Assembly (NCBI GenBank): GCA_041615815.1
Contig: JBFJCP010000014.1
Location: 32,001-96,000 of the forward strand
Direction of reading: 5' to 3'
Source: Gemmatimonadales bacterium
GTDB taxonomy: Bacteria > Gemmatimonadota > Gemmatimonadetes > Gemmatimonadales > GWC2-71-9
Length of the DNA: 64,000 nucleotides
This document shows, one piece after another, positions 38,590 through 56,580 of this stretch. The position numbers and the translations under genes are program-made. The first letter of the stretch is position 1. Each line of letters opens with the position of its first letter. The notes beneath the pieces were generated by a model. It saw only the letters and a program-made list of their open reading frames with translations. It ran no database searches and had not been told where the DNA came from.

Positions 38590-38618
38590 AGGCTAACCCG
38601 AGGTTCCAAGAGCGTCAA
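38590..38618 (-). promoter_or_regulatory. Putative sigma70 promoter for small membrane protein/tRNA-Val
   Basis: TTGACG (38618-38613), 17 nt, TAGCCT (38595-38590); 8 nt to the ATG. Confidence 0.55.
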
Positions 38619-39475
38619 GCAGCGGAATCCGACTCTCCGTCGGGAATGATCCATCCCTCGTCGAGTGCGGCTCGGCGGAGTCGGTTACGATCGCGGCGCC
38701 ACCACCACAGAATGGCGAGGAGCACGCCGACCACAGCCCAAAACGCCGAGAACGTGCTCATCAACAGCACCCATCCGTACCGATGACGCAGATCACGGCG
38801 CCAGCGATCTTCGAATTGTCCCAACGTGAGTTGATAGGTGGTCCGCAGGGCGCGATCGAAGTCGGACTCGCTCTTCAGCGTCGTGATGAGGGGCTCGAGA
38901 CCGCGCTCTCCGCCGAGGCGTTCCAGCAACAGCACGGCGGTGGCCGCCAACGCGTAACTGGTTTCCGCACTTGCGGCGGTCTCGCTCCGGAGCATGCGGT
39001 TCAAACCACCGAGCGTCGGCACATCCCCACGGAGCAAGGCCCAATTCACGCGCAAGGCGTCCAGGCGATTCCACTCGTCGGCAGCGCGCACGGCATACCC
39101 CTCGTCGAACCACCGGGGCACGACTGGGACCGCAGCGTGCAACGCCAGGTGCGCCAACTCGTGGCGGAGAATCTGCCGCGGGTCATCCACGAGACGCACG
39201 ATGACGAGATTGGCATGAGGAACGGCCGCACCGACTCCCCACTCCGGCAAGCGTCCGCGCGTCAGCGAATCGAACCGGCTGGCGTCACGGACGACAACGA
39301 CCCGAACCGCTGCGTCAAAGGGGTCGATGATACCGGGCCAGGGGCCCGCCCGATCCGCCAGCTCGGCCAACGCGGCTGCCGCATCTCGGTCGCCCGGCCA
39401 GTAGAGGGCGGTCACCCGGCCCACATGCACCCATGCCGGCTCCTGCACTAGCAGGAGCGTAGTAAGGAATAGCGT
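38615..39475 (-). CDS. MA-clan (HExxH) metallopeptidase-like protein with C-terminal TM; probable non-canonical start
   Basis: ILRHELAH...VPRWFDEGYA gluzincin-like motifs; the signal-like LFLTTLLLVQ begins at ACG 39475. Confidence 0.75.
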   Translation of the reverse strand, partial: TLFLTTLLLVQEPAWVHVGRVTALYWPGDRDAAAALAELADRAGPWPGIIDPFDAAVRVVVVRDASRFDSLTRGRLPEWGVGAAVPHANLVIVRLVDDPRQILRHELAHLALHAAVPVVPRWFDEGYAVRAADEWNRLDALRVNWALLRGDVPTLGGLNRMLRSETAASAETSYALAATAVLLLERLGGERGLEPLITTLKSESDFDRALRTTYQLTLGQFEDRWRRDLRHRYGWVLLMSTFSAFWAVVGVLLAILWWWRRDRNRLRRAALDEGWIIPDGESDSAA

Positions 39476-40338
39476 TAGCGTGGTGGCTCCTGCCCTGCCT
39501 CCACCTGCTCCAGGATGTCCTGGCACCGCTTGCCCCAAGGACTGTATTTGTTGGCCTTGAAACCGCTGGCCCAGGTTTGCTTGGCAAGCTCGTGATCTCC
39601 ACCGAACCACTGGGCCCGGCCCAGCTCGTAATAGGCTTCGATGAGATTGGGACCGAGCTTCAGCGTTTTTTCGAAGAAGGTGGTGGCATCTTCGTACATC
39701 TCACGTTCCAGGTACACCAAACCCAAGTAATAGTGCGCGTAGAGGGTGGCTTTCTTGTCGTTGTCGAGTCGGATCGCCTTGCTGAGGTGCTCGATGGCCT
39801 CGCCAAAGATCCGTTTCTTCAGACAGATGTATCCCACATTGATCCGGGCCAACGAATTGGCCGGCTCGGCCATCAGCACTTTCTGGAAGGTCCCGAGGGC
39901 TTCGTCGTAGTCCTCGCTCAGCATTTGCGCCCAACCGAGGAGCGACTGTGCCTGCGTATCGCCCGGTGCCAGCTCCAAAGCCCGGCTGAGGGCCTGGGTA
40001 GCAGCCCCGTAGTCGCCGAGGGAAATGAGGTGCCAACCCTTCTCGATGTAGGTGGAGGCACCGAGGTTGTCCACGCGGGCGGCCGGCGCCGCTCCGGTGA
40101 ACTGCGGAGCGCGATCCCCGGTCCATCCGGCCGCGATCTGCTTGTAGGTGTCAACCAGCTTCCGGATGTCCTCCTTCAGATCCGAGAGCTGGGCGATTTC
40201 GTAATCCACCGTCTTGAAGAGTTTGATGATCTCGCGTTTCACGGCCTCCCGGCTCTCGGCCGACGACCGCACGTTCTCCAACCGTTTGGCGATGGCGTCG
40301 TACTCCTCGCGCAGGGTCTGCACCATGGGCTCATTCAT
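39475..40338 (-). CDS. Coiled-coil plus TPR protein
   Basis: N-terminal heptad-rich helix followed by about five TPRs (AHYYLGLVYLER, AYYELGRA). Confidence 0.85.
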   Translation of the reverse strand: MNEPMVQTLREEYDAIAKRLENVRSSAESREAVKREIIKLFKTVDYEIAQLSDLKEDIRKLVDTYKQIAAGWTGDRAPQFTGAAPAARVDNLGASTYIEKGWHLISLGDYGAATQALSRALELAPGDTQAQSLLGWAQMLSEDYDEALGTFQKVLMAEPANSLARINVGYICLKKRIFGEAIEHLSKAIRLDNDKKATLYAHYYLGLVYLEREMYEDATTFFEKTLKLGPNLIEAYYELGRAQWFGGDHELAKQTWASGFKANKYSPWGKRCQDILEQVEAGQEPPR

Positions 40339-40807
40339 GACCTACCTCCACGGTGAGGGCCTCCAGGGCGATTCGCTCGGTGGAGGTGAGCAACTTGGAC
40401 GCGGCGAGGATGACCACCGTTCGTTGCCCCGACGACAGAATACCCGTGATGTACTCCGCCGCCAGGCCCCGAACCAGAGCGGGCGGCGGCGTGACGCGCT
40501 CGGCGTCGACCTTGAGCACCTCGAGGACGGCATCCACGACGACACCGACTCGGCCACTGTCGGATTCGACGATCATGATGCGCGTCTCATCGCGCACCGG
40601 CGCCTCGGCCCCCACCCGCGTGCGGAGATCGATGACCGGGACCACGGCCCCACCGTAGGGCAGCATGCCCTCCAGAAACTCTGGCGCCTTGGGAAGTGGC
40701 GCAGGCTCCTGATAACGCAGAATCCGCTCCACCTCGAAGACGTTGATCGCGAAATCGCGTCCACCGAGGCGAAACGTGACGAGCTGGACTTCGTCGCCGG
40801 CGCTCAC
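40331..40807 (-). CDS. cheW: CheW adaptor
   Basis: QLVTFRLG..FAINV..VERI, LPKAPEFLEG, VVPVIDLR, VGVVVDAV; GTG 40807. Confidence 0.9.
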   Translation of the reverse strand: MSAGDEVQLVTFRLGGRDFAINVFEVERILRYQEPAPLPKAPEFLEGMLPYGGAVVPVIDLRTRVGAEAPVRDETRIMIVESDSGRVGVVVDAVLEVLKVDAERVTPPPALVRGLAAEYITGILSSGQRTVVILAASKLLTSTERIALEALTVEVGHE

Positions 40808-41229
40808 GGGACGGCCACGGCCGAGGGCGGTGCCAGCCGTTCGGCGAGGTTCGCCACATCGATGATGGGGACGAGCCGTTCCGAGCGCGCGATTCCGAGC
40901 GCCCAGGGCAGCTGCCATCCCGCCGGCAGCGGCAGGTGATCCTCGCCCACCACGGTGTCGACGTCATCGACTTCGAACACGATCGGACCCGCGGGACAAT
41001 GGGTGAGCACCCCCGTCCCGCGAAGCGCCGCGGGCGGGCGATCGTGCGCGATGAGCGCGGCGAGGTCCACCAGCGGAATGAGCCGGTCGCCCACGGCAGT
41101 CACGCCGCGGACTGCGGGCAGGACGCCGGGTGCCCGGTACACAGCGTCCAGATCGAATACGTGATCGAGATCTTCCAGCCGGAAGCCGTACTGCTGGCCG
41201 TCGGTCCAGGCGAGGAGGTAGCCTTTCAT
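40804..41229 (-). CDS. cheW: CheW-like adaptor (divergent)
   Basis: [38 protein letters not shown]. Confidence 0.75.
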
Positions 41230-42305
41230 GCGGTGCGCATCCGCTCGAGCGCCTGGACGATCCGCCTAGCGAGGTGCGGCAGCGACACCGGTTCCTCCGC
41301 AGCCCCACTGCTGAGGGCGACCTGGGGCATGCCGAAGATGACCGCGGTTTCGCGATCCTGCGCCATCGTTCGTCCCCCGGCTTCTCGCATCGCCTGCAGT
41401 CCTTCCGCGCCGTCCCGGCCCATGCCCGTCAGCACGACGCCGACGGCGTCGCCTCCGAAGACCGTCGCCACCGATCGGAAGAGTGGATCGGCCGCCGGTC
41501 GCACGCCCCAGACCGGGACGTCGCGGCTGAGCGCCAGATACGGTCCGTCTTCATTCACAGCCACCCGCATATGATAATCTCCGGGGGCCACGTACGCCGT
41601 GTCTTGAAGGAGGGGGACGCCATCCTCCGCCTCGACCACACGGAGCTGGCTCGCGTGGTCGAGACGTTGCGCCAGGCTGCGGGTGAACTTGGGGGGCATG
41701 TGCTGCACGATGAGGATGGCCGCACCCTGGCCTGGGGTGATCCGGGGAACGATCTCGGCCAAGGCCCTCGGTCCCCCTGTGCTCGCGGCGAGCGCGACGA
41801 CCGCCCGGGCCCGACCCACGAGGGGAGGGCGCGGTGGTCGCGACGGCGCAGGTGCAATCCCCGCCAGCATCGGCACGCGATCCAGGTGGGCCTGGCGGGC
41901 CGCATCCAACGCGCCGAGCAGCCCATCGCGCAGGGTGTCGAGCGCCCCCGCGTCTCGACCTTCCGGTTTCGCCACGACTTCCACGGCGCCCAACTCGAGT
42001 GCGCGAATCGCCGCGTCGGTGCCCGGACCGACGTAGGCGCTCACCACCACGATTGGACGAGGCGCCTCGCTCATGATGTAGCCGATGGCATCGAGGCCGT
42101 CGAGACGGGGCATCTCGATATCCATCGTGACCAGGTCGGGCTCGTAGCGATGCGTCTTCTCGATGGCATCCTGCCCGTCACGGGCGGTCGCGACGACCCG
42201 GAAGGCGTCGCTGCAACCGATCAGGTCGGACAGGACTCGGCGCATGAACGCGCTGTCGTCGACCACCAGCACGGTGGTCCGGCCGTCAGAGCTCTTCGAC
42301 CGCAT
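41226..42305 (-). CDS. cheB: Chemotaxis methylesterase CheB (REC plus catalytic domain)
   Basis: [38 protein letters not shown] 42305. Confidence 0.96.
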
Positions 42306-42780
42306 GCCCGACGGACCGCACGTGCACCGTACCGTTGGCCACATCAAACCACACCGACCGGCCGGTCTCGCCACCCACCGCTTCCCCAACGATGGGGATG
42401 CCGGCGCTTCGCAGGCCGAACCGGCAGGCGACGACATTGCGCTCGCCGATGTGAATGGTCCCCGCTTGGAGGAGATCAGCGAACATGCTCGCGCCTCCAA
42501 TGAGGCGCGCCGTCACGCGGCGGACATCCGCGCCGCACTCCCGCATCTGCGCCACGGTGTGGGGTATGGCCGTATCCGCGGCCCGACCGGGATGGGCCGG
42601 ATGCTTGGAGAGCGCGCGTGTGGGGAGGAGGACGTGCGCCAACGCCCCGACCTGCGTGGCCTCGTCGTACAAGATGACCGCTACGCAGCTGCCAAGGCCC
42701 AACGCGGAGAGGGTACCGGTCCCGCGCGCAATGGCGACCTCACCCATCCGCACCAACCGCTGGTCGGGTATCGTGGTCAC
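42286..42780 (-). CDS. cheD: Chemoreceptor deamidase CheD
   Basis: [39 protein letters not shown] 42780. Confidence 0.92.
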
Positions 42781-43589
42781 GGACGGCGGTAGATGCGCTC
42801 CCGGGCGTTTTCCAGCACGAGTCGCTGCCGCGCCTCGCCAAACAGCACTTCCACCTTGCCGAGGATCAGGAATCCTCCCGGGCGCAGCGCATCGATGAAG
42901 CGGGCAAAGAGCCGGTCCTGACTGGGGCGGTCGAAGTAGATGACCACGTTGCGGCAGACGATGAGATCGTAGGGCGGCGACGGCGGTGGGTCTCGGAGCA
43001 CATCGTGCTGGGCGAATTGCACCAGGTCTCGGACGGCTGGAGCGACGATCCATCGCTCGCCCGGCGTGAAGTACCGGGCCATCACCTCGGGCGGCGTTTC
43101 CTCGAGCGTTCCCTGAGGATACGTGCCGCGGGCAGCGCGTTCGAGACTCTTGCGATCGAAATCCGTGGCGTCGATGGAGATGCGGACCGAATCGTCACCG
43201 GTCCGCCGGGCGTGCTCGAGAAACACGATGGCGAGCGTATACGGCTCTTCACCGGAGGCGCAACCGGCTGACCACACGCGCCGGTGCCCAGGTCCTCGCC
43301 CCCACAGTGCCGACACCACGTCCCGCATCACCACGTCCCACGTTTCGCGATTGCGAAAGAACTTCGTCACGTTGATCGTCAACGCTTCGAGCAGCCGGTC
43401 GTATTCGCCGCGGTCGTCGTCCAGTACCTCCGCATACTGGGCGTACGTGTGCACGCCCCGGGCCCGCATGCGAACGGCGATCCGCCGGCGCAGACAACTC
43501 TCCTTGTACGACTCGCACCATACGCCGCGCTCGGCTGCGACCTTTCCCATCAATCGGACCAGGTCCGCATCCCGCTCGTTGGGCTTCAC
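42777..43589 (-). CDS. cheR: Chemotaxis methyltransferase CheR
   Basis: TINVTKFFRN, WSAGCASGEEPY, CRNVVIYFD. Confidence 0.96.
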   Translation of the reverse strand: MKPNERDADLVRLMGKVAAERGVWCESYKESCLRRRIAVRMRARGVHTYAQYAEVLDDDRGEYDRLLEALTINVTKFFRNRETWDVVMRDVVSALWGRGPGHRRVWSAGCASGEEPYTLAIVFLEHARRTGDDSVRISIDATDFDRKSLERAARGTYPQGTLEETPPEVMARYFTPGERWIVAPAVRDLVQFAQHDVLRDPPPSPPYDLIVCRNVVIYFDRPSQDRLFARFIDALRPGGFLILGKVEVLFGEARQRLVLENARERIYRRP

Positions 43590-45205
43590 TTGAGGGCTTG
43601 CATGGTTTCGAGGTTCGCCCGGGCCAACTCGTGATTCGGGTTCAGCTCGAGCACCATCTGCCAGAGGCTCGCTGCCCCGTCGTGGTCATGTTGCTTGTAG
43701 GCGATGTTGCCCAACCGGAAGTAGACGTCCTCCCCGAGCTTGGGATCGAGGCGAACCGCTCGCTGGTAGCTGTCCCACGCGTCGTTGAAGCGGCCAGCCC
43801 GATAGAACAGGTCACCCAGATTCTTGGAGATTTGGGGCAGCGAAGGGTCGTCGGTGAGCGCTTGTTCCAGTACTTCCTGGGCGTCGTCGCGATCGCCGCG
43901 CACTTCCAGGAGGACCGCAAGGTTGTTACGCAGCACGACCTGATCGGGGAACTGCTCGAGCCCCTCGCGGATGAGACGCTCGGACTCGTCGTACCGCTCC
44001 AGACCTGCCGCCGCGAGCGAGCGCGCCCAATACCACAGTTCGGTGAGCGCGCGGTCCCGAGCGACCTCACGCGCGCGGTCGAGCCGACCCGCCGCCACCT
44101 CGCAATCGCCACGGCGCAGAGCCGCCACTCCCCAGCCGGTGAGCACTCGGGGATCGTGGCGCGCCTTCGAGGCCGCTTCGGCGTACACACTTTCGGCTTC
44201 CTCGAGCCGGTCCGCCTTCTCATAGCTGAGCGCCAGGTTGTACAGGATCGACGGCTTGGGCCCCTCCCGCTCCGCCGCCTTCTTGAGGAGTTCCGCCGCC
44301 TCGGACCACCGCGCCTGTTTGAGCGCGATCAAACCCAAATGGAACCACGCCGACCCGTCCTCCGGCCGGAGCTCGACGACCTGCCGGAACTCGCGTGCCG
44401 ATTCATCCAACATCCCGGCCTTGAAGAAGGCGACCCCGAGATTCCGGTGCTCGCCCATGCGCGTGTCACTGACCTCTTCGGTCGGGGGCGCTTGACTGCG
44501 CCCCGTGGGGTGCAGAAAGCCGGCGGTCAGGAGCCCATACAGCGCCTTGCCCACGTCGAACTCGTTCATCCCCGAATCTTCGACCACGTGTGCCACGTCC
44601 CGCACGCCGTCTACGAGCGGCAGAATACGCTCTTGCTCCGATGTCAGCGTGACGTCCGAGCTGCTGAGCCGGCCACGGTCGACGGAAAAGATGATATCGA
44701 ACGACGGAATCTTCTTTTCGATGAGGCTCCACTCGTCCACGCGGCGAGCGCCCTCCAGCAACAACGATTCCGGATTGATGGAGATGGCGAAATCGTGCCG
44801 GTCGGGACGCACGTCGCCTTCGAACTGGAAGTTTCCGCTGGACCAGGTGAAGAGATTGTAGACGGCCTCCTCGATCTGCACCCGCACGTAGTGCTCGAGG
44901 TCGTCTCGCGAGAGCGCGCCCTGCTGCACCAGGATTTGTCCCAATCGTTGGTCCGGCGTTCGCCCTTGCTGCTCCACCGCGGCCACGAGCTCCTGCTGGG
45001 TGATCTTGTCGTTCTTGACCAGGATATCGCCGAGGCGATCGCGTCGATTCACGATCATCGCGTCCGCGATCCGTCCCCGTTCGAAGTAGATGTGCCCCAG
45101 ATTCTGCCGATCGCTGATGGTCAGGCATCCCGTCTTCTGCCCGAGGGCGAGGAGCTGGAGCACGTCGGGAAGTGACGCCTCTTTGAGGCTGCCGCGGATG
45201 GCCAC
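43586..45205 (-). CDS. DUF4388/PATAN domain, MshEN-like motifs and TPR repeats
   Basis: GSLKEASLPDVLQLL...KTGCL, RLGxxL repeats, LFTWSSGNFQFE, LLLEGARRVDEW, C-terminal TPRs. Confidence 0.85.
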   Translation of the reverse strand: MAIRGSLKEASLPDVLQLLALGQKTGCLTISDRQNLGHIYFERGRIADAMIVNRRDRLGDILVKNDKITQQELVAAVEQQGRTPDQRLGQILVQQGALSRDDLEHYVRVQIEEAVYNLFTWSSGNFQFEGDVRPDRHDFAISINPESLLLEGARRVDEWSLIEKKIPSFDIIFSVDRGRLSSSDVTLTSEQERILPLVDGVRDVAHVVEDSGMNEFDVGKALYGLLTAGFLHPTGRSQAPPTEEVSDTRMGEHRNLGVAFFKAGMLDESAREFRQVVELRPEDGSAWFHLGLIALKQARWSEAAELLKKAAEREGPKPSILYNLALSYEKADRLEEAESVYAEAASKARHDPRVLTGWGVAALRRGDCEVAAGRLDRAREVARDRALTELWYWARSLAAAGLERYDESERLIREGLEQFPDQVVLRNNLAVLLEVRGDRDDAQEVLEQALTDDPSLPQISKNLGDLFYRAGRFNDAWDSYQRAVRLDPKLGEDVYFRLGNIAYKQHDHDGAASLWQMVLELNPNHELARANLETMQALK

Positions 45206-47169
45206 TAGTACATCTCCTCGATGGCCCGCTCACCGGGATCGGGCCAGGTCCACACCATCTTCTCACGGCTGGTGACCCCACCCCGCGGCGACGCGATGAC
45301 ACCACTGGTGCGCATGCCGGTGGGCCGCGGCCGGACGGGTTGCGCTCCCTCTACTAGCTCGCGAGCCAGGCTCACCGACGGCGACACGCCCCGCGTCTCC
45401 GCGGTGTCGAGCACGCGCTGGACCATGCCGACCACCGCTCGAATCCCGTCGGCCGAGCGGGCTGCGAGGTAGTCCGCGAGGTCGTCACTCACCTCACCAT
45501 GCCGCTCCTTGAGCTTGCGGGCCACGATGGCGCGCCGCAGCTCGCGGTCCGGCGTCCCGATGGCGACCACCTGTCCCATTTCCAAGAGCGCCGCGAGTTC
45601 CCCGCCAAGACCTTCCGAGACGCGGGGCGCGGTGGTGAGCGTGACCACCACCTGTCGGTGCGATGCCCGGAACTGCGCGATGAGATGGGCCAGCTCTTCC
45701 TGCGGACGCTCCTTGCCAGCCAGCAGCTGCACGTCATCCAGCAAGAACGCGGTCACGGGTTGATAGCGGGACAGCCAGATGCCCAGTCGGTCACCCTCGA
45801 GCGCGTCCTCGAGCTCGTCTTCGAATTGTTGGGCGGAGAAGCACGCGACCATGGCGCTGGGCTTGGCGGCGAGGGCGTTGCCGATCGCGTGGAGCAAGTG
45901 CGTCTTGCCGACCCCGCTGGGACCCACCAGAACCACGAGGGGCCGTTCCACACCCGGCGCCTCGAGCGCGACACGAGCCGCTTGGAGTGCCGCGCGATTG
46001 GCCTCTCCCTCCACGTAGGTCTCGAACCGCCATGCCGCCGACGGCGCGGGCGGGGGAACCTGATGCTTGGTCGCCTCTTGCACGAGCGCCTCGGCTTCCG
46101 CCACGCGGTCCGGATCGGTGAACGCCGGGTCTTCCACCCGAGCGGGATCGACGGTTTGCATGACACCAGCCAGCGAGCGAAGACGTTTCACATCGCGCTC
46201 GAACTCGCGCAGGGCCTGGTCGACGGCGACCGAGACGTCCTGGAGCAACAGCTGTTCGAGCCGCGCCGTGCGATACCCCTCTTGCTGCCACCGCTCGATC
46301 CCCGCCTCGAGACGGGTCCGCCACTGCTCGACCTGGTGCTCCACGGCCTCGGTGACGTCGGACAAGAATGCCGCGAACTCGTCACGCGACGGCGCGGCTC
46401 CAGCTCCCACCGGCATCGGCGTGCCACCCCCCACCGCCGCAAGGGCGGCGCCCTCTCCCGCCACCAACGCCTGGACCATGTCCGCATTCAGGGCCTGCTC
46501 GCTCACCGCCTGAAGCGCGACAACGCGATTCAGATAGCCGAGGAGCTCGCGAATGCTCGAGACTTCGAGCCGCGCCAATGTCTCGACCACGTCTGCAGCC
46601 AATTCGGCGCCGCGTTCCCGGGCGCGTTGTTCCAGCACGGCAATTCGCGTCTGGAACTCTGGGAGGCCGATGTCCACCACCAGACCGCCGGCCAGGTTGG
46701 CGCGGAGCTGATCGTCGAGATCCTCGATCTCCGACGGCGCCTTGGTGCCCGTCAACACGACCTGCTTACCCGACTGCTGGAGCTGGGTCAGCACTCGGGA
46801 GAGCTCGCTCTGGAGGTCGGTCCGACGGGAGAGATACTGTACGTCGTCGAGCAACAAGAAATCGACCTGGCTGAAGCGGTTGCGGAACGCTTCTGTCTGT
46901 CCCGCGGCGGCGGCGGCCTGGAACGCCTCCTGAAACTCCTCCAGCGACAGGTAGGTCACGGTGCTGGCGGGCGTGAGCATGTTGGCCAGCTGACCGATGG
47001 CCATCACGAGGTGCGTCTTCCCGAGACCCGGGCCCCCATGAATCACCAAGGGGTTGTACGCGGTCCCCGGCGCCTCGGCCACGGCGCGTGCAGCGCTGAC
47101 GGCCAGTTGATTGGCCGGCCCCACGACGAAGGTGCCGAACGTGTACCGCGGATTGAGGCCCGCCGTCAC
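45205..47169 (-). CDS. Tandem DnaA/Hda-like AAA+ ATPase (two ATPase modules, no domain I or IV)
   Basis: [29 protein letters not shown]; second copy [27 protein letters not shown]. Confidence 0.85.
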
Positions 47170-47769: not shown

Positions 47770-48240
47770 TCACCGTCCGAAGAGGGCCGCGAGGCTCTCG
47801 TTGAGCTCACGCTCGAAGTCTTTGGCGAGCACGAGTTTTTTGGCCGTGGGCTCGGGGCTGGCTTCGAGCAGCTCGCGCACGAGCTCTTCGAAAAACAGTT
47901 GCACCAACCCCACCGAGGAGTCTCCGCCATACACGGCAAGGAGCAGCATGCGCCCCCGCGGCAGCTCGAAGCCGCCGAGGAAAACACCGTGTTGCGCGCC
48001 CTGATGATTCAGGGACTGGAACGACGCGTCGCTGAGCATCTTCGCGATTTCCCTGCTCGACGACATGATGGCCGCGCCAAGGGCCGCAGCGGACATCACG
48101 TCCACAGCGCGCGTGAACCCGTGTTGCGCGAGCACCTGACCGGCCGGCGTCATGAGGAGCGTCAACCGAGCCTGGCTTTCCCGTACGAACCGCTCCAACG
48201 GTTCGACGGTCCACGGCTCGACCGCCCGGGTGAGATTCAC
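47770..48240 (-). CDS. mglB: MglB-like Roadblock/LC7 GAP
   Basis: AGQVLAQHG...[20 protein letters not shown]...F.SLNHQG, SSVGLV, C-terminal helix ending LFG; directly upstream of mglA; GTG 48240. Confidence 0.85.
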
Positions 48241-48587
48241 ACGACCGCCTCGGCGACCCGCCGCATTTCCAACCGAAGCAGTCCGATATTCACGTCCCGA
48301 TCCCCCACGGCCACCACCAGCACGCCATCCGGTGCCGGAACGGCCAGAATGGTCCCCCCGTGCGCCTGGAGATGGAGAAACCGCGGAACCCCTCCCCCCG
48401 CGGCTTCGCTTGCCTTTCGCAACCGCTTGGCGAGGCTCGCCGCCAACGCCGCCACGGCGTTGCCGCGCACGCCTTCCATGAGCGACTCGGCCACGACGAG
48501 TCCGTCCTCGCCGGCCACCAGCATCGCACCGCGCACTCCCCGAATGCGGGTGATCCGTTCCAACGCATCCGTGAACGCGAGCGTCAC
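48237..48587 (-). CDS. Roadblock/LC7 protein (MglB/MglC-like)
   Basis: GVRGAMLVAGEDGLVV, AVAALAASL, VNIGLLRLEM; GTG 48587. Confidence 0.85.
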   Translation of the reverse strand: MTLAFTDALERITRIRGVRGAMLVAGEDGLVVAESLMEGVRGNAVAALAASLAKRLRKASEAAGGGVPRFLHLQAHGGTILAVPAPDGVLVVAVGDRDVNIGLLRLEMRRVAEAVV

Positions 48588-49435
48588 CGACGTTGCTCCT
48601 TGAGCCATTGGCGCGCGCGGCGCGATGCCCGTTCCGCCAGTACCCCGAGCCGTCCCTGCGGGACGGACCGGTCACGGGACATGAGCAGGACGGTCCGCTC
48701 ACTCGGTCGAGCGAGCAGCAGGTTGCCGCCGTCCCCCTCGACGAGCATCGACCGCCACTCGCCGAGCTCCAAGAGCCTGGCGGTGCGCTCCGCTTCTTGC
48801 GCCGCTCCTGCGAGGTGGGCCGCCACCTCTTCGGCGATATCGGCCCCATCCACGGCGTGGAGGGACCCGGTGAGCACCAACCCGCGCTCGTCGACCAGCA
48901 GGATCCCATCGCCGCCGCCGCCTTCCAGATCTTCCCACGGGGTCGGTGGGGTGGGAGGGGCCCGCGGCGCCGACGCTCGGGGTTCCTCTGGGGCCGGCGG
49001 TGCGTCCGGCCCCGCGGCCGGTTCCGTAGGTGGCGCCGAGCCCTCACGAACGCGTTGGAGGGCCTGGACCACGGTTTGATCAGTCGGATCCGCCGCCAGG
49101 GCAAACTCGAGGTGCTCGACCGCCCCATCCAAGTCCCCCCAGCGATAGCACAAAAACCCCAGCCCTTTGTGGGCTCCGAGATGGCCAGGGTCCAGCTCCA
49201 GACCCACGGTCCACTCGTGGTACGCCCGCTCGAAGTCACCCAGATCGATCAGGACCCGGGCGTACAGATCGTGCGCGGCCGAGAGGTCGGGATGCCGCAC
49301 GACACCCGACGCGGCGATGCGCGCGGCGGAATCGGTCTGCCCCCGCGTCCGCAGGGCCTCGCCGAGCCGCAGGAAGACGAGGCTCGCGGGATCGCGAGCG
49401 AGCTCGGCTGTCATGGCCTTGATGTCGTCAGCCAT
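48584..49435 (-). CDS. TPR, Pro-rich linker and Roadblock/LC7 fusion protein
   Basis: DPASLVFLRLGEALR TPR start, Pro-rich linker, LLVDERGLVL...LELGEW Roadblock; ATG 49435. Confidence 0.8.
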   Translation of the reverse strand: MADDIKAMTAELARDPASLVFLRLGEALRTRGQTDSAARIAASGVVRHPDLSAAHDLYARVLIDLGDFERAYHEWTVGLELDPGHLGAHKGLGFLCYRWGDLDGAVEHLEFALAADPTDQTVVQALQRVREGSAPPTEPAAGPDAPPAPEEPRASAPRAPPTPPTPWEDLEGGGGDGILLVDERGLVLTGSLHAVDGADIAEEVAAHLAGAAQEAERTARLLELGEWRSMLVEGDGGNLLLARPSERTVLLMSRDRSVPQGRLGVLAERASRRARQWLKEQRR

Positions 49436-50585
49436 GAACCGAGCGCACGAGCGCGTCGAGTGTCTGTGCGGCCGTGACGGCCTCCTGCACCCGCTGGAGG
49501 TCGGCCACATCGGCTTGGGAGTCGTGCTCGCCAATCTTCAGCCACCGCTGCCACCACTCCACCGCCTCGTGGAAGCGGCCCTGGAGCGCCAGTGCGTCCC
49601 CCAGCAACCGATGCGCGGAGACGAGCAGCGGATCCAACCTGAGGGCGCGCCGCAAGTTTTCTTCCGCCTCGTGCGAGCGGTTGGCCGCCAGCTCCAACCG
49701 GCCCAAGAGGGCGTACACCACGGGCTCGTGGGGTCGGAGGGAGCGGGCCTGCTCCGCCCATCGTCGGGCTGCTTCCAGGTCGCCGGTCTCAGCGGCTGTG
49801 GTGGCGCGGGCCATCAGGTCGTCCAAGTCCTCAGGAGCCTCGACAGATTCACTACTGGACCGCCGGCGATCCGTGATCACCAGCACACCCGCGCTTTCCA
49901 GCCCGAAAATCGTCTTGGCGACCTCGAATTCGGACCGGCCAAGGAGAGTCGCGATGCCGCGAACGTCGCGATCCCCATCGATCGCGGCCATGACTTCCCA
50001 CTCCGTGGGCAACAGATCGAGCGCTCCCTGGTCGCCACCCCCCGTGGGCGCGAAACTCGGTACCACGCCGAGGTTGGGGATCTTGCCCTCGATTTGCGAC
50101 CACTCGTCGATCCGCCGAGCGCCTTCCATGAGCAGGGACTCGGTGGGGATCCGAACCGTGGCGTCCGCGGGCATGTCCGCCGCATTCTCTTCGGCGAAGG
50201 AAAAATACCCCTCGCGCCAGCTCAACAGCTCGAAGATGACCTCTTCCACCTGGAACCGGACGTGCCGCTCGAGCTCGCGCTGGGAGACGGCACCGATGGT
50301 CACCAACAGCTCGCCGAGCCGGCGCCGATCTCCTCGGTGTTGCATGTCACGGGCGCGCTGCAGATCGGCTTCACTGACCTTCCCCGCCCGGATGAGCAGA
50401 TGACCGAGGGGATGCGGGTTGCTCTGGATCTGCGCAAACACCACGGCGCCGTCCTGAAACACGACGGTTCCCTGGTTGCGCCGGAGGTTGGACACCACGG
50501 TGAGGGTACCGGTCTTGCGGCTCAGGTCCAGTAGCTGGAAGACATCGTGGATTCCCAGCTCCTTGAGGGGTCCCTCGATGGCCAT
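49428..50585 (-). CDS. DUF4388/PATAN domain, MshEN-like motifs and TPR repeats (paralog of 43586-45205)
   Basis: GPLKELGIHDVFQLL..RKTGTL, LLSWREGYFSF, LLMEGARRIDEW. Confidence 0.85.
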   Translation of the reverse strand: MAIEGPLKELGIHDVFQLLDLSRKTGTLTVVSNLRRNQGTVVFQDGAVVFAQIQSNPHPLGHLLIRAGKVSEADLQRARDMQHRGDRRRLGELLVTIGAVSQRELERHVRFQVEEVIFELLSWREGYFSFAEENAADMPADATVRIPTESLLMEGARRIDEWSQIEGKIPNLGVVPSFAPTGGGDQGALDLLPTEWEVMAAIDGDRDVRGIATLLGRSEFEVAKTIFGLESAGVLVITDRRRSSSESVEAPEDLDDLMARATTAAETGDLEAARRWAEQARSLRPHEPVVYALLGRLELAANRSHEAEENLRRALRLDPLLVSAHRLLGDALALQGRFHEAVEWWQRWLKIGEHDSQADVADLQRVQEAVTAAQTLDALVRSVHG

Positions 50586-50588: not shown

Positions 50589-53288
50589 TCAGGCCGCCTC
50601 CGTCCGGAAGATCTGCTGAAGATCTTGTGCGGTCCGGACGTGTTTCCGCGCCTCTTGGGCGTAGCGACTCGAGGGATCGACCGCGACCACGCGCTCCCAC
50701 CGCCCAACGGCATCGCGGTAGCGACGCAGGCGCGCCAGCGCCACGCCTTCAAAGAACAGCGCGGCCGGGTGATCGTGCTCGAAGGCCAACACCCGGCGGA
50801 AGGCGTGCAGCGCGTCCGGCACCCGATTGTCGTCCAGCAACGCATGTCCGAGCGCCAAGATGGCCTCGACGTCGGACGGGTCGCTGGCAAGGGCTTCCAC
50901 GAGCAGGTGGATCGCGGCTTTGGGCTTTCCGTTTCGTCTATGGAGCTGCGCGAGCGCCAGGGCAGCCTCGGTGAGGGTCGGTAGGGCCTCCAGGGCGGAG
51001 CGATACGCGGTCTCGGCCTCGTCGTCACGGCCGCGGGCTTCGTGCACTTTGCCGAGGTCAACGCGCAATTGGACGATGCGCGGATCGAGGCTCAGCGCGT
51101 CCCGATAGGCGCGCTCGGCGGCCTCGAGATCCCCCATGCGCATGGCGACATCCCCTTCCAGCTTCAGGATGTCGGCCCTCTGGGGTGCCTGCCGACGCGC
51201 CTGCTCGAGTGAGGCGAGTGCCGCGGCGGGATCGCCCGCGGAAAGCTGGGCTTGGCCAAGGGCCGTAAGGACATCCGCGTCCGCGGGACGATCCCGGGCC
51301 AGGGCACCGGCGTCGTCGACGGCTTCGCTGCCCCGACCGAGCGCCACTAGTTGGCGCACGATGCCGAGCCGTACATCCTGCCGATCCGGGGCGAGCGCCT
51401 GCGCGTCACGGAAACGGTCGAGCGCCTCCCCGTGCAATCCCCGTCGGGCAAAGATCTCACCCGCCAACACCTGCGCGTCCACCTGATCCGCACCCCGGCC
51501 CAGCGCGCGGTTGACCTCCGCGGCGGCGAGCTCAAGGAGCCCCTTGTGCAGGTAGTCCCGCGCCAGAGCCAAGGGGTCGGTGGATGCGGGCGCTTTCCCG
51601 ACTGGCTCCCGCTCCAGCTCGGCGAACAGGCCGTCCAACATCTGCTGGTCGAACTCGATGTGCTGGCCGGACAGCTCCGTCGCCACTTCACCCGAAATCT
51701 CCGGGACCACCGCGATCGTGGGATCCTCGTACTGGAGGTCGATGGCGAGCTGGAACTTCTGCGGGATGTAATACGGATCGAGCTGTTGTGCCCGCGTGAC
51801 GGCCCGAAGCGCGCCGTCGTAGTCGTTGAGCTGCGAGAGTACGAAGCTCAGGTTGTAGTGCGCCTCCGCGTTGTTCGGCTCGCATTCCACGGCCCGGGCG
51901 AATGCGTTCCGAGCGTCGGCGATACGATCCATCTCGGTGAGGACCCACCCAATGCCATTCCACGCTGAAGCCGAGCGTCGATCCGAGCCCAGCGCCTGCC
52001 GGAATGCCTGGATGGCGAGCTCGAACCGCCCGAGCTTGAATAGCAGGAACCCGAGGTTGAGCTGGGGCACGGTGAGCCCGGGCTGCGCGCGCAGCGCGTC
52101 CCGCAACGTCTCGACCGCTTCCTCATGCCGCCCCGTCTGTGCGAGGGTAATGGCCAGGTTGTTCTTGGCGAGCGCATAGTCCGGCGAGGCGGTGACGGCC
52201 TGCTCGTAGCAGGCGACAGCCTCTTGGAACTGGCCCAGCTGATGAAGGACGACGCCGCGCTCGTTCCAAATCTTGGGAGAGTCCGGTTGTTCCTTCGCTA
52301 AGCGCTCATATTGCTCAAGCGCCGCGGGGTAATCGCGCTTGAGCAGCTCCACCTCGGCCAACGCTTGCAGCACGAGGTGACGGTCCTCACCCCGCTCGAG
52401 TGCCAGCCGGTATTCGCGAATGGCCTCGTTGTAATACCCCTGTTGCCGAAAGGCCAGCCCCAGATTGAAGTGCGCCAACTCGTCCTCGGGGTCCTGCATG
52501 GCCGTGAGGGCCTCGAGGCTGCGCCGGGAGACCCGTTTTCGCTCCGCCTTGAACCGTTCGAGCGACAGATTGGTTTGGGCGCGGGCAAACGTGGGGTTGA
52601 GCTGGATGGCTCGTTTGGTGGCGGCGCGGGCGTCTTCGTGACGACCGAGATCACCGAGGACGAAGGCCATTTGGTAGTACGCCTCGGCATTGTCCGGGCC
52701 CAGGGCCGTGGCTCGCTCCAGGATGCCCAAGGCGTCCTGGTTGAGTCCTCGATTGTACAGGACCTCGCCGAGATAGAGGTGTACCACGCTGCTCTCGGGG
52801 TCGAGCTCACGCGCGCGCTCGAGGGCGTTCGCAGCCGCTTCGAGATTCCCACGGTTCTTTTCCACGAGCCCGACCTGTATCAACGCGGCCATGTCGGCGC
52901 GGTCTCGCTCCAGCATGGCGTGAAACTCCCGGAGCGCCGCATCGGCCTCGCCCAGTGCCGCGTAGGCCCGACCCAACTCCCACCGCGCGGACCGATCCGT
53001 CGGGTCCCCCCGCAGCCGCTCTTTGAGCTCGGCCACCCGCTGGTCGTAGTAGCCAGTCTCGGTGTAGGCCAACTCTAAGTTCCGCTGCGCCACCTGCATC
53101 TTGGGGTCGAGCTCGAGGGCGCGCAGGAACTCCCGGATGGCCTCCTGCACCAAGCCACGTTCGTAGTACAGCACGCCGAGATTGTTATGGGCGCCTGCAT
53201 CGGACGGATCGATGCGGTTCGCGAAGGACCGCAGCGTACTGCGGTCCTCCGGGGACATGACGTGTGGGGCTCCGACGTCAGCCGACAC
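50589..53288 (-). CDS. Large multi-TPR protein (~900 aa)
   Basis: Near-continuous TPRs (AHNNLGVLYY, AHFNLGLAF, IWNERGVVL, AWNGIGWVL); no signal peptide. Confidence 0.88.
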   Translation of the reverse strand: MSADVGAPHVMSPEDRSTLRSFANRIDPSDAGAHNNLGVLYYERGLVQEAIREFLRALELDPKMQVAQRNLELAYTETGYYDQRVAELKERLRGDPTDRSARWELGRAYAALGEADAALREFHAMLERDRADMAALIQVGLVEKNRGNLEAAANALERARELDPESSVVHLYLGEVLYNRGLNQDALGILERATALGPDNAEAYYQMAFVLGDLGRHEDARAATKRAIQLNPTFARAQTNLSLERFKAERKRVSRRSLEALTAMQDPEDELAHFNLGLAFRQQGYYNEAIREYRLALERGEDRHLVLQALAEVELLKRDYPAALEQYERLAKEQPDSPKIWNERGVVLHQLGQFQEAVACYEQAVTASPDYALAKNNLAITLAQTGRHEEAVETLRDALRAQPGLTVPQLNLGFLLFKLGRFELAIQAFRQALGSDRRSASAWNGIGWVLTEMDRIADARNAFARAVECEPNNAEAHYNLSFVLSQLNDYDGALRAVTRAQQLDPYYIPQKFQLAIDLQYEDPTIAVVPEISGEVATELSGQHIEFDQQMLDGLFAELEREPVGKAPASTDPLALARDYLHKGLLELAAAEVNRALGRGADQVDAQVLAGEIFARRGLHGEALDRFRDAQALAPDRQDVRLGIVRQLVALGRGSEAVDDAGALARDRPADADVLTALGQAQLSAGDPAAALASLEQARRQAPQRADILKLEGDVAMRMGDLEAAERAYRDALSLDPRIVQLRVDLGKVHEARGRDDEAETAYRSALEALPTLTEAALALAQLHRRNGKPKAAIHLLVEALASDPSDVEAILALGHALLDDNRVPDALHAFRRVLAFEHDHPAALFFEGVALARLRRYRDAVGRWERVVAVDPSSRYAQEARKHVRTAQDLQQIFRTEAA

Positions 53289-53898
53289 GTATGGCGTCGA
53301 AGATGGCCTTCAGAGACGCGAGATCCGGCAGGAGGAGGAAGTGTCCCTTGAGCTTCCTGCCCGCATCCTCGAAATGGAAGTTGCTTTCCACGCAGAACAC
53401 AACGTCCCGATCGTGGCTGAAGCTCACGAAGGCCGTGGTGAGGACGGCCGCGGCCTGATCGATCACCAGGCCCGGCACCGAGGGCAACAGCATCATCCCC
53501 ATGAAATCCGAGAGGGCGTTCATATAGGCACCACCGAGGATGTTCCCCGCCTCTTTGAGCGCGGACTGTTCCAATTCCCCAAACGTGGTGGTGGAACCCG
53601 GCTGGCGGCGCAGCAGCAAATCGCACAGCAGGCGCGCGTTGGCGTCCGGCAGGATCAGCAGCGTGCGGCCGGTGAGATCGCCTAGCATATGCATCAGGAC
53701 CGCGGCCACGACATCCTCGGGATCGCCGAGCATCTCCGGGACTTGCTCGACCCCCCGAACCTCGATCTCGGGCACGCTGATCATGATCTTGCGCTGGGTC
53801 AGCTGGGACAGCGCCGTCGCGGCGTGACCGGCTCCGATGGTAGCTACCTCTCGGACCGCGTCGAGTTGCAGCTGATGTAGGTCGCGAAGGTCGTCCAT
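53278..53898 (-). CDS. cheC: CheY-P phosphatase CheC
   Basis: DAVREVATIGAGHAATALSQL, ISVP, SALKEAGNIL, NALSDF, PSVP, FLLLPD. Confidence 0.93.
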   Translation of the reverse strand: MDDLRDLHQLQLDAVREVATIGAGHAATALSQLTQRKIMISVPEIEVRGVEQVPEMLGDPEDVVAAVLMHMLGDLTGRTLLILPDANARLLCDLLLRRQPGSTTTFGELEQSALKEAGNILGGAYMNALSDFMGMMLLPSVPGLVIDQAAAVLTTAFVSFSHDRDVVFCVESNFHFEDAGRKLKGHFLLLPDLASLKAIFDAIRVG

Positions 53899-53910: not shown

Positions 53911-55773
53911 CTAGACCAGCCCGCCGGCGTCCAGAATGAGAGCGGGAGCCCCGTCCGCCAAGATAGTGGCGCCGCCGAAAATGGGCATCGTCCCGCGGGG
54001 GGGATCAAAGGACTTCACCACGATCTCCTGCTGGCCAGCCATCCGATCCACCACCAGCCCGGACAGTCGATCCCCAATCTCGATGACGATCACCGGGCGC
54101 TGAAGCGGCCCACCCTCGGGGGTCCCCACCAGCGCTCGAAGATGGAGCAGCGGGATCACGCCGCCCCGGAACTGCATGGCGTCCCGCCCATCCACCTGGG
54201 TGACGGCCTGCGGATCGAGGTCGACGGCCTCGGCCACGTGCGTGATGGGAAGCGCGTAGCGCTCGTCCCCCACCTCGGCGATCAGCGCCCGCACGATCGC
54301 GAGCGTCGTGGGCAGCCTGAGCGTAAAGGTGGAACCCTCCCCCGCCACGCTCCTGATCTCCAGCGTTCCTCCCAGGGACCGCAGCCGACTGGCCACCACG
54401 TCGATGCCGACCCCGCGCCCCGAAACGTCGGAGACCTGCTCGGCGGTACTGAAGCCCGGGCGTCCCAGCACTCGCAACAAGAGATCGTCGCTGAGCCGGT
54501 CCACGTCTTCGGCCACCAGCCCGTCCTCCTTCGCACCCGCCAGAATCCGCTCCCGGTCAATCCCCTGACCGTCGTCCTGCACCCGAATCGCGACCGTGGC
54601 CCGCTCCCTCGTCGCGCTCAGCAGGATGCGTCCTTCCGGGGGCTTACCCTCCAGCTTACGCTGGTCGGGCATCTCGATACCGTGATCTACGGCGTTGCGG
54701 ATGAGGTGGACCAGCGGGTCCCCGATTTCGTCCAGGATGGCCCGGTCCAGCTCGATTTCCTTCCCCTCCAGCTGGAGCGCCACCCGTTTCCCCAGTTGCC
54801 GGGCGAGATCTCGGACCAGGCGGGGGAACCGATCGAAGACCTGCCACACCGGCGTCATGCGTGCCTCGATGATCTCGCTCTGCAGCTCGGTGGCCAGACG
54901 GGAGATCTTGAGGGTTACGTCCTCGAGGTCGGGGTCGGCTCGCGCGGCCACCAACTCCGCCAGACGTCCCCGGGCGGTGACCAGCTCGCCAATCCGGGTC
55001 ATGAGCCCGTCCAGCCGCCGCAGATCCACCCGCATGTGACGCGCGCGGCCCGCCCCGACGGCCGCCCCACCGGTGTCGATCTCGCCGATCATCACTTCGG
55101 CCACGTCGCCAGCCGCCCGAATGGTGGCTTCGAGCGTGGCGTCGTCCACCGTGGCCTCGATCCGGAGGGCAAAGCGGCCGTCGAACTCGTCGCGCTCCAG
55201 CGCCACCGGAGCGGGGCGCAGCGAATGGACCGCGCCCAGCTGCTCGAGCCGGCGCACAATCACCAGCGCTCGCGCGCCCTTGAGCTGGGTCTCTTGGCGC
55301 AGCGCGATTCGCACGCCGCGACCACCGGCCTCCGCACGCGCGACCATGGGTGCCGCCGGACGGGAACCACTGGGACGGGCGACGCGCCGCTCCATCGTGC
55401 CCGCGAGCCGGTCGAGGCCCTGGAGCACGTCAGCGGTTTCCACCTCGTCTTCGCGTCCCGCCACCGCCGCCTCGGACGCTTGCTCCAGCACGTCAGCCGC
55501 GCGAAACAGGAGCTCCAGGCTCTCCTCGGTGACGGCTCCTTCACCGCGCCGCAGGAGATCCAGGAGGTTCTCGGCGCGATGTGCCAGCTCCGCCACGGTT
55601 GCATACCCCAGCGACGCGGCCATGCCCTTGATGGTATGCACCGCCCGGAAGATCTCCACCACGGGCTCGGTCGCGGCCGGATCACGTTCCCAGTCCAGCA
55701 GCATTCGGTTGAAAGTGGCCAGGTGGTCCCGAGTCTCGGCGAGAAAGAGCTCGGCGTACTGCGGGAGGTCCAT
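53911..55773 (-). CDS. cheA: Chemotaxis histidine kinase CheA
   Basis: Hpt IFRAVHTIKG, RVDLRRLDGLM, HLIRNAVDHGIE, DDGQG, GRGVGIDVV, C-terminal CheW-like domain; ATG 55773. Confidence 0.97.
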   Translation of the reverse strand: MDLPQYAELFLAETRDHLATFNRMLLDWERDPAATEPVVEIFRAVHTIKGMAASLGYATVAELAHRAENLLDLLRRGEGAVTEESLELLFRAADVLEQASEAAVAGREDEVETADVLQGLDRLAGTMERRVARPSGSRPAAPMVARAEAGGRGVRIALRQETQLKGARALVIVRRLEQLGAVHSLRPAPVALERDEFDGRFALRIEATVDDATLEATIRAAGDVAEVMIGEIDTGGAAVGAGRARHMRVDLRRLDGLMTRIGELVTARGRLAELVAARADPDLEDVTLKISRLATELQSEIIEARMTPVWQVFDRFPRLVRDLARQLGKRVALQLEGKEIELDRAILDEIGDPLVHLIRNAVDHGIEMPDQRKLEGKPPEGRILLSATRERATVAIRVQDDGQGIDRERILAGAKEDGLVAEDVDRLSDDLLLRVLGRPGFSTAEQVSDVSGRGVGIDVVASRLRSLGGTLEIRSVAGEGSTFTLRLPTTLAIVRALIAEVGDERYALPITHVAEAVDLDPQAVTQVDGRDAMQFRGGVIPLLHLRALVGTPEGGPLQRPVIVIEIGDRLSGLVVDRMAGQQEIVVKSFDPPRGTMPIFGGATILADGAPALILDAGGLV

Positions 55774-55774
55774 C

Positions 55775-56137
55775 CTACCCCAGGACCCGTTGGACGGCCT
55801 CGAGCACCCGCGACGGCTGAAAGGGCTTGACGACGAAATCCTTGGCCCCGGCCTGGATGGCTTCGACGACGAGTGCCTGCTGCCCCATGGCACTGCACAT
55901 CAAGACGCGGGCATTGGGATCGACCTTCACGATCTCCCGCACCGCGTCGATGCCGCCCATGTCCGGCATCACGATATCCATCGTGACCAGGTCGGGGTTC
56001 AGCTGTTTGTACTTCTCGACAGCCTGCACACCGGTTTCGGCTTCGCCAATGATTTCGTAACCTGCTTGCGACAGGATGTCGCTGATCATCGTCCGCATGA
56101 AGATCGCGTCATCGCAGACGAGCACCGTGTGGCTCAC
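55775..56137 (-). CDS. cheY: Response regulator CheY (Bacillus/Thermotoga/DifD-like)
   Basis: VLVCDDAIFMR, MDIVMP, CSAMGQ, DFVVKPF. Confidence 0.95.
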   Translation of the reverse strand: MSHTVLVCDDAIFMRTMISDILSQAGYEIIGEAETGVQAVEKYKQLNPDLVTMDIVMPDMGGIDAVREIVKVDPNARVLMCSAMGQQALVVEAIQAGAKDFVVKPFQPSRVLEAVQRVLG

Positions 56138-56145
56138 ACACCCTC

Positions 56146-56580
56146 CTACGACGGAAACATCGGACCCAACAACGCATCGAAATCGAGGAGTACGAACGAC
56201 AGGTCCGCGCGACGGCCGACCGCGCGGACCACCGCCGGGTCCACCCCGGGGAGCGCACTGCGATCGGCGAGATCGGCAGACGGCACCGCCAACAGATCGA
56301 TGACCTCGTCGACCACCAAGCCCACGGTCCGCGGCCCCACATCCAGCAACAGGATCGAGCCCCCGTCGCTCGCCGCCTCGTGGCCGAGTGCCCGCCGTCC
56401 GTCGACCAACGTGACGAGGGCCCCTCGCACGTTGATGAGGCCGGCCACCGCATCAGGCGCGCCCGGGACTCGGGTGGCTGACTGCGTCGAGAGGATCTCA
56501 CGCACGGTCGCGGCCTCGGCCGCACAGGCCAGATCGGCCACTCGAAACACGAGAAGCCGGACGCCGGAAAAGTCGGCCAT
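56146..56580 (-). CDS. cheW: CheW adaptor
   Basis: LLVFRV, TRVPGAPDAVAGLINVRG, VGLVVDEV; ATG 56580. Confidence 0.9.
   Translation of the reverse strand: MADFSGVRLLVFRVADLACAAEAATVREILSTQSATRVPGAPDAVAGLINVRGALVTLVDGRRALGHEAASDGGSILLLDVGPRTVGLVVDEVIDLLAVPSADLADRSALPGVDPAVVRAVGRRADLSFVLLDFDALLGPMFPS

Follow-up and report, generated by a model that had tools for sequence, protein, structure and literature searches.

Chemosensory pathways of the F1 type, known from Bacillus, Thermotoga and archaea, combine a CheA kinase that has domains P1 to P5 and no receiver domain with the proteins CheC and CheD, and their receptors are of the 44-heptad class. Dif systems draw on a gene set of CheW, CheY, CheA and CheC, and the kinase of the Frz system, FrzE, is a hybrid of CheA and a receiver. 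Here we describe a gene cluster in which a CheC/CheD-type pathway is encoded together with a small GTPase of the MglA family, three Roadblock proteins, two DUF4388 (PATAN) proteins and a DnaA-derived ATPase. The cluster occupies positions 38615–56580 of a 64,000-nucleotide stretch (the window) of the Gemmatimonadales bacterium assembly GCA_041615815.1, corresponding to positions 32,001 to 96,000 of the forward strand of contig JBFJCP010000014.1.

Even in Myxococcus, whose genes for the task are scattered, the route from chemosensory kinases to the MglA switch is understood only in part; mglA itself lies apart from its partner genes there, according to one survey (PMC4316618). A PATAN domain of Synechocystis binds PilB1 and PilC (10.1101/2021.06.11.447907). 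The survey (Wuichet and Søgaard-Andersen, 2015, PMC4316618) remarks on PATAN genes in the vicinity of mglA, and its Table S2 records the order PATAN>MglA>-PATAN> for Gemmatimonas aurantiaca GAU_1409, as well as a separate MglB>MglA locus. Full-text literature searches, with most subscription papers outside their coverage, returned no description of the present cluster or of a link between MglA, a DnaA-like protein and a chemosensory system, and no paper joining MshEN, DnaA and PilB. A preliminary description of this DNA, made from the sequence alone, knew of no characterization of the arrangement, which holds for the full cluster, although the order PATAN-mglA-x-PATAN already stood in that 2015 table.

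A chemosensory pathway interleaved with an MglA module

Nineteen abutting genes lie on the minus strand between 38615 and 56580, co-oriented and in the order first described, and their labels are supported by Pfam and NCBIfam. With the starts chosen, 17 of the 18 junctions measure between -20 and +12 bp, the last one hinging on the uncertain start of a peptidase gene, and this spacing suggests that the cluster is co-transcribed. A sequence scan of the region gave 0 promoter-like sites (1.4 in shuffles) and 3 terminator-like sites (8.4 in shuffles), and GC content is flat over the whole window. The catalytic motifs of CheA (H46), CheY (D54), CheB, CheD, CheR and MglA (R53, T54, Q82) are intact.

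The search for relatives covered 150 genomes of the phylum, which are kin and hence not independent of one another. In 40 loci picked for the ATPase, cheA is present in 37, mglA in 39 and the gene for the second PATAN protein (protein b) in all 40, in the order of the window. Among the matches listed, 95 genomes have an operon-type mglA, a count made without two unpublished genomes and without genus g11, whose copies have diverged: cheA lies at most 12 kb from mglA in 79, the two genes are on different contigs in 9, with mglA at most 6 kb from the contig start, and 7 have no cheA orthologue. Unlinked che and mgl halves in relatives, named at the outset as a finding that would speak against a joint circuit, are thus not the rule, and the order is not a product of chance, because it recurs in relatives at 25-93% protein identity.

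A split version of the cluster exists in another phylum. When a distant homologue of the ATPase served as the query, the matches came from WOR-3, TA06 and Stahlbacteria, in which one piece reads (mglB)-mglA-ATPase-protein b-cheR-cheD-cheB-TPR (tetratricopeptide repeat), often followed by cheW and a gene for a methyl-accepting chemotaxis protein (MCP). The other half lies elsewhere in all five WOR-3/TA06 genomes searched for cheA and reads cheY-cheA-cheC-TPR(899), then TPR and Roadblock genes; the first PATAN protein (protein a) follows TPR(899) in three of the five, and MCP and cheW genes precede this half in four. Is the interleaving functional? The pieces are parted at or next to the mglB-mglA junction and not at the border of che and core genes. 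A break inside the core leaves che and core genes in both pieces, and this is our strongest argument for a functional interleaving.

The che half of one WOR-3 locus is headed by a large chemoreceptor (L144:3601-6939; similar open reading frames (ORFs) in L145, L146 and L148) that has the signalling domain close to its N-terminus and ends in a family-5 solute-binding domain. In L144 this half comes after dnaX-ybaB-recR, where canonical mglBA is usually located.

The chemosensory half

On the upstream side of the core are cheW (1) (56146..56580; all coordinates on the minus strand; PF01584, E 4e-25), cheY for a single receiver domain with D54 (55775..56137; PF00072), cheA with the Pfam architecture Hpt-P2-dimer-HATPase-CheW and no receiver domain (53911..55773), and the CheC phosphatase gene (53278..53898; PF04509, E 1e-20; NF041093 at 173 bits, under its cut-off of 250). 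Downstream of the core follow the CheR methyltransferase gene (42777..43589; PF01739, E 5e-50), the CheD deamidase gene (42286..42780; PF03975, E 4e-25), cheB for a receiver plus methylesterase (41226..42305; PF01339 and PF00072, NF001965 over cut-off), cheW (2) (40804..41229; PF01584, E 3e-12), cheW (3) (40331..40807; PF01584, E 5e-32) and a gene for a 287-aa TPR protein (39475..40338; Pfam TPRs), which also comes after cheB in WOR-3 loci and is the final gene of the module.

The cheA, cheC, cheD and cheR genes are the only copies in the 4.19-Mb assembly, which is 95.7% complete, and its five MCP genes all lie outside the cluster. The receiver-less CheA together with CheC and CheD, as seen with Pfam, bears out the pathway type first proposed and matches the gene content of the F1 type; the best NCBIfam models for that assignment are Thermotogales and haloarchaeal, all below cut-off. 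All five MCPs extend 155-172 residues beyond the hairpin tip, where 44 heptads lead one to expect an arm of 154 residues. The output of F1-type pathways to a flagellar switch has no counterpart here: FliG, FliM and flagellin were not found in the genome, including the FliM to which CheY would simply bind in the alternative that the preliminary description had set against its own. In the CheA tree, built without named references, the WOR-3 and Gemmatimonadota copies are neither joined nor clearly separated.

The receiver domain that marks the Frz hybrid kinase is missing from the cluster's CheA, and the receptor gene expected within a Dif-like cluster is missing as well, no MCP gene being present in it. 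CheY is 78-93% identical across 22 relatives and finds its best PDB matches among ordinary chemotaxis CheYs (e.g. 1tmy, E 1e-52). By alignment, it carries all five primary specificity residues of DifD (F13, M14, M17, D20, I21) at the same positions, as these are listed in PMC4671073.

PATAN scaffolds with a c-di-GMP motif

Protein a (49428..50585; PF14332, E 4e-32) has a DUF4388/PATAN-TPR architecture with a partly degenerate MshEN-type insert, and protein b (43586..45205; PF14332, E 2e-38) reads, with the help of a structure model, as DUF4388/PATAN-MshEN-winged-helix-like-TPR. Both hold a tandem MshEN-type cyclic di-GMP (c-di-GMP) motif within the PATAN domain, a feature that had been overlooked at first, together with the links to pili given below. 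Against NF053729 (cut-off 38), protein b scores 49.8 bits and protein a 39.2 bits with residues 1-240 and 37.5 as a whole protein; residues 54-117 of protein b match PilB, PilF and MshE chains in the PDB. A six-frame scan of the genome with an MshEN motif pattern matched only PilB and the two DUF4388 proteins. With protein b, a fold search using the whole protein returned TPR superhelices only, and an Atlas search returned PatA_N clusters only. PATAN and receiver in one chain, the hallmark of PatA, are not seen, the architecture being PATAN-TPR.

Protein b is present in 71/72, 28/31 and 2/2 genomes of the three families of the order, in 5/28 other genomes of the class and in 0/17 outside the class (the phylum-wide tallies of protein b, FliG, pilM and flagellated cheA counts include the unpublished genomes G055 and G095, and no claim rests singly on them). 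It is retained in che-only, mgl-only and ATPase-only loci, the exceptions being four near-total deletions, and this retention suggests that it is the hub of the predicted circuit; its central position in the cluster is an alternative cause. In the smallest remnants, G112 is down to mglA, cheR and the genes for protein b and the short TPR protein, and only the ATPase and protein b remain in G114. The MshEN insert is cleanly deleted in all five ATPase-less loci of one clade. That insert and ATPase are always lost together was considered and refuted by G112, in which the ATPase is gone but the insert is still there. The PATAN-MshEN N-terminus of protein b also recurs, unlinked and at 58-62% identity, as part of much longer ORFs at L080:8858-9553 (G067) and L081:4885-5571 (G091).

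MglA, Roadblock and TPR proteins

Next to protein a lies a gene for a TPR-Roadblock protein (48584..49435; PF03259 and TPR), followed by genes for a stand-alone Roadblock/LC7 protein (48237..48587; PF03259, E 7e-11; PDB 7f8m, E 1e-7), an MglB-like Roadblock protein that is a predicted GTPase-activating protein (47770..48240; matches to the MglB structures 6h5b, 6izw and 3t1r, E 1e-8 to 6e-7) and the MglA-family small GTPase (47166..47765; profile match to MglA 6h17, E 2e-89). All motifs of Group 1 MglA are present (P-loop, switch I Arg/Thr, switch II Gln, NKxD), R53, T54 and Q82 are invariant in 26 alignment rows, and the MglB-type Roadblock coupled to Group 1 proteins is supplied by the adjacent gene that matches MglB structures. 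A canonical mglB-mglA pair, missed at first, adjoins dnaX-ybaB-recR elsewhere in the same genome, on contig C3, and the cluster's MglB-like protein is 35% identical to its MglB. A tree built from 37 MglA sequences sets the operon-type copies, whichever of the two phyla they come from, apart from the canonical ones as a clade (support 0.986), and the window's MglA is therefore a second paralogue, not orthologous to the recR-linked mglBA locus.

The MglB-type Roadblock is lost in 5/40 loci retaining mglA. In L036, L040, L041, L042 and L053, the three Roadblock genes and cheR are gone and mglA is retained; in such loci, the canonical MglB may serve both MglA paralogues. The operon MglA has diverged to 35-42% identity in L024:10385-10990 (G105) and in L068 and L069 (genus g11); in L024 its switch motifs are altered, with the gene still in place. 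The large TPR protein is shortened to ~380 aa.

In the window, this large TPR protein is a scaffold of 899 aa (50589..53288; Pfam TPRs), and an alignment of its linker shows a conserved acidic helix with the consensus LDxLFxEL at about residues 552-559 (49 rows). The helix resembles the C-terminal end of canonical MglB, which we regard as a lead only; helices of this kind act allosterically on MglA in Myxococcus (PMC6785124). A role of the linker as a CheY-binding peptide was set aside because the linker is also kept in lineages that have lost the che genes. In one che-less lineage the large TPR protein is 45-47% identical, against 56-63% in che-bearing kin, the other genes being unchanged, a single event.

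A DnaA-derived ATPase

The protein encoded between MglA and protein b (45205..47169; PF00308 twice) consists of two DnaA domain-III AAA+ modules with a helical linker between them and has neither domain I nor domain IV. Its structure model has a predicted local distance difference test score (pLDDT) of 88, and its best fold match is DnaA domain III (8bv3). The Walker A, Walker B and sensor II motifs are kept. Having no domain IV with its DNA-binding helix-turn-helix and no domain I, it does not qualify as a DnaA initiator; a full dnaA lies elsewhere in the genome, on contig C8.

A profile search, in which 32 of 150 matches were scanned, turned up naturally fused proteins: two such modules behind MshEN in P0074 and P0083, and one tandem ATPase with a receiver (P0066); a metagenome scan with P0083 alone gave no matches. 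In two metagenome loci (L169:5764-20745 and L170:5032-20074), a row of MshEN-headed proteins, most of them with DnaA-type modules, lies between pilD and pilB-pilT, and in another (L230:9914-13549), an MshEN-ATPase fusion immediately precedes pilB-pilT, so that 3/6 metagenome loci examined place such fusions in a pilus locus. In a tree of 67 AAA modules, those of the window and most fusions group together, apart from full DnaAs, at a node without a support value. The pilus-locus fusions offer at least a functional analogy to the window's ATPase.

One of the MshEN-headed proteins in the L169 and L170 rows has ~2,000 aa and two AAA modules. Other large DnaA derivatives (P0103, P0107, P0124, P0125, P0134; loci L176-L178, L181, L182, L185, L192 and L206) measure 1,000-2,200 aa, have their DnaA-type module towards the C-terminus and lack a helix-turn-helix tag. 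Some have zinc ribbons, and together they form an uncharted set.

Flanking genes and extent of the module

The ATG of cheW (1) is at 56580, 1 bp past the rluD stop, as first noted. Between the cluster and divIVA, ~6 kb upstream, are pnp-ileS-lspA-rluD; between it and rsmH, ~2 kb downstream, are one TPR gene and two tRNAs. The placement of the block between divIVA and the dcw cluster therefore stands, although neither is an immediate neighbour. The tRNAs (tRNA-Asp and tRNA-Val, 36360–36434 and 38311–38385) lie on either side of the intervening TPR gene of 584 aa. In relatives that have no module, rluD abuts the peptidase gene or the next TPR gene, and because the flanks close up in this way, we regard the divIVA/dcw neighbours as a mere insertion site; with the WOR-3 pieces in other contexts, not next to divIVA or dcw genes, the position loses its value as a hint of a role in division.

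The nineteenth gene encodes a peptidase-MA-like protein with HExxH and a C-terminal hydrophobic helix (38615..39526, start uncertain; PF13485, E 2e-8). It is probably a flanking gene, outside the module: it persists, whole or as a fragment, in 3/4 module-less relatives and was not detected in the WOR-3 pieces. For this reason we count 18 genes in the module, so that the original unit of 19 holds for the abutting genes and not for the module.

Type IV pili as the likely output

The window's genome has pilM, pilQ, five PilB/GspE-type and three PilT-type ATPases, along with 14 GGDEF matches. FliG is present in 40/151 genomes of the phylum and missing from 59 of the 79 relatives with linked cheA and mglA. 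Of 20 mglA loci fetched from the WOR-3 phylum, 14 are of the operon type, and pilT lies at most ~3 kb upstream of mglA in 13 of these, the contig of the 14th ending there; pilM and pilQ lie further upstream in 6 of 24 mapped loci, a set that overlaps in part with the one counted for pilT. The output of the cluster is likely to be type IV pili rather than flagella.

The canonical PilB of the window's genome is on contig C6. Contigs C18, C19 and C23 of G000 (L007-L010) encode four further ATPases of the PilB/GspE type, one 1,281 aa long, in which no RLG-type motif matches. At G000:C9:50347-57676, pilT lies inside the string TPR-efp-accB-pilT-accC, parts of which precede mglA in WOR-3 loci.

Discussion

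A conserved single cluster that brings a CheC/CheD-type pathway and an MglA/Roadblock module together is upheld as first proposed; a flow of Che signals to MglA would be a further step, and several lineages keep one half alone. We propose, with our confidence about evenly balanced between acceptance and doubt, that the cluster forms a circuit with chemosensory and c-di-GMP inputs that governs the activity or polarity of type IV pili, setting where or when they act. Five receptors encoded elsewhere would drive CheA via the three CheWs, CheR, CheB and CheD would adapt the response, and CheC would reset CheY. The likely target of CheY-phosphate is a PATAN scaffold, with protein b the most plausible of the two, so that the pair would amount to a cyanobacterial PATAN-receiver regulator in split form, and c-di-GMP would gate the scaffold through its MshEN motif. 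The scaffold would then position the MglA paralogue with its Roadblock regulators as well as the DnaA-derived ATPase, and these would jointly switch the activity or the pole of PilB/PilT. A bolder version, which we consider possible but doubtful, is an ancient, undescribed pilus-control machine of at least two phyla, in which chemoreceptor signals and c-di-GMP would meet at the PATAN-MshEN scaffold and the scaffold would load the GTPase and the DnaA-derived ATPase onto the pilus motor, the latter as a third class of pilus ATPase or as a motor remodeller. One operon would then hold an entire chemosensory-to-polarity wiring that in Myxococcus is scattered and incompletely known.

The same genes could be arranged in a Dif-like manner, with pili as upstream surface sensors, the che core controlling exopolysaccharide or attachment via another response regulator, CheY serving as a phosphate sink, and MglA, PATAN and MshEN coupling the whole to pilus state and c-di-GMP. 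The DifD residues in CheY, perhaps common to CheYs of this class, the MCP that heads cheW-cheY-cheA-cheC in 4/5 WOR-3/TA06 loci and the GGDEF matches fit this, as do Geobacter clusters that hold CheA, CheW, CheY, CheC, CheD and CheR (PMC2577667); yet CheY looks most like ordinary chemotaxis CheYs, the module's flanks within the window hold no genes for polysaccharides, and MglA goes unmentioned in the accessible part of that Dif account (PMC2577667), and we think this arrangement rather unlikely. Could the cluster instead hold two or three separable units (Che; MglA-Roadblock; ATPase-PATAN) whose joint transcription serves life on surfaces and which do not signal directly to one another? Independent losses speak for it: cheA was lost and the core kept in at least three lineages (G147/G107/G110, G091/G042 and G068), G070 and G072 keep the che genes and protein b and have lost mglA, the Roadblocks and the ATPase, and G114 is reduced as described. 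Interleaving kept in two phyla, a WOR-3 break away from the che/core border and the faster divergence of the large TPR protein in one che-less lineage, albeit a single event, make us judge such independence improbable.

Surface motility by type IV pili is the likeliest target among the roles first guessed, whereas asymmetric or budding division is unsupported. A link to replication or division, in which the ATPase would modulate DnaA as Hda does and MglA would mark the division pole, draws on the DnaA domain III folds of both AAA modules and on the position between the divIVA block and the dcw cluster; against it stand an ATPase with no DNA-binding domain, the deletion of the ATPase or the entire module in several relatives with the flanks closed up, the location of the WOR-3 pieces away from divIVA and dcw genes, and related MshEN-ATPase fusions beside pilB, which leave it very improbable in our view. 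We give hardly any credence to ordinary flagellar chemotaxis with CheY binding FliM. The parts do resemble Thermotoga and archaeal chemotaxis proteins, and eight flagellated relatives show the operon's cheA alone, but besides the flagellar genes not found in the window's genome, FliG is confined to 14/72 genomes in one main family and 13/31 in the other, a further cheA lies 19-71 kb from fliG in eleven flagellated relatives, and the five FliG-positive genomes (over cut-off) of 61 from the WOR-3 phylum have no MglA match.

Several observations weigh against a chemosensory circuit for pili, among them the separate losses of che genes and of mglA with the ATPase, and the eight flagellated relatives, just described. 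No pilus gene is present in the window, the part outside the cluster, read from ORF starts and not family-scanned, having yielded no flagellar or pilus gene. The pilT–mglA adjacency comes from one lineage and may be a single ancestral rearrangement; in the window's genome, pilT is unlinked to the cluster, in the same efp-acc context as in WOR-3. Among the co-occurrence checks first suggested, pilus genes are present and a flagellar switch was not found, but pilM, present in 144/151 phylum genomes, including families without the operon, does not discriminate because it is nearly universal. The ATPase adds to these points. Although 29-35 of the 37 rows in its alignment retain the Box VII arginines, these are replaced in both modules of the window's copy (Q154, N158, E524, L528), which may have lost oligomer-dependent ATPase activity; the L230 fusion groups with an ordinary DnaA, and the tree of AAA modules leaves a common origin of pilus-locus fusions and the window's ATPase unsupported.

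If the proposed pilus circuit is right, the ATPase core of DnaA has been reused outside replication, and a widespread, mostly flagellum-less and poorly studied group has a defined route for surface sensing. The candidate links (CheY, two PATAN-MshEN scaffolds, two TPR proteins, three Roadblocks and one AAA+ protein) are encoded together and conserved, and therefore every pairing is testable; che-less, mglA-less and ATPase-less variants exist in nature for comparison.

How does the cluster relate to the systems already described? With Frz–MglA/MglB/RomR(X) of Myxococcus xanthus it shares a chemosensory input, a Group 1 MglA, an MglB-like partner, extra Roadblocks and, likely, pili as output; it differs in being one cluster with a receiver-less CheA, CheC and CheD, an MglA that is a second paralogue, and the added PATAN-MshEN scaffolds and DnaA-derived ATPase. 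Dif and the Dif-like systems of Geobacter have in common with it CheW, CheY, CheA and CheC (with CheD and CheR in Geobacter), DifD-type residues and, likely, a non-flagellar, pilus-related role, whereas here there is no receptor in the cluster, CheB and two more CheWs are present, and a core of MglA, Roadblock, PATAN and ATPase genes is embedded. As in cyanobacterial clusters of the Tax/PatA type, PATAN/DUF4388 is encoded in a chemosensory cluster and pili are, here only probably, the output, but PATAN is fused to TPRs and not to a receiver, CheY is separate, and the GTPase module and AAA+ protein are additional. The ATPase has the AAA+ fold, Walker A/B and sensor II of DnaA domain III and Hda in two tandem modules without domains I and IV. 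Protein b shares with the MshEN receptors of MshE and PilB (PDB 5htl, 5tsg, 6f8l) a tandem RLG-type motif over cut-off, inserted in the PATAN domain of a TPR scaffold and not at the head of a secretion ATPase. The Table S2 row has the same core order, with no che genes recorded, the gene between mglA and PATAN unnamed and no function given (PMC4316618). In its working, the cluster resembles Frz-Mgl or Tax and belongs to neither; it is, apparently, an undescribed and conserved combination, one of whose components is unusual while its parts are of familiar kinds.

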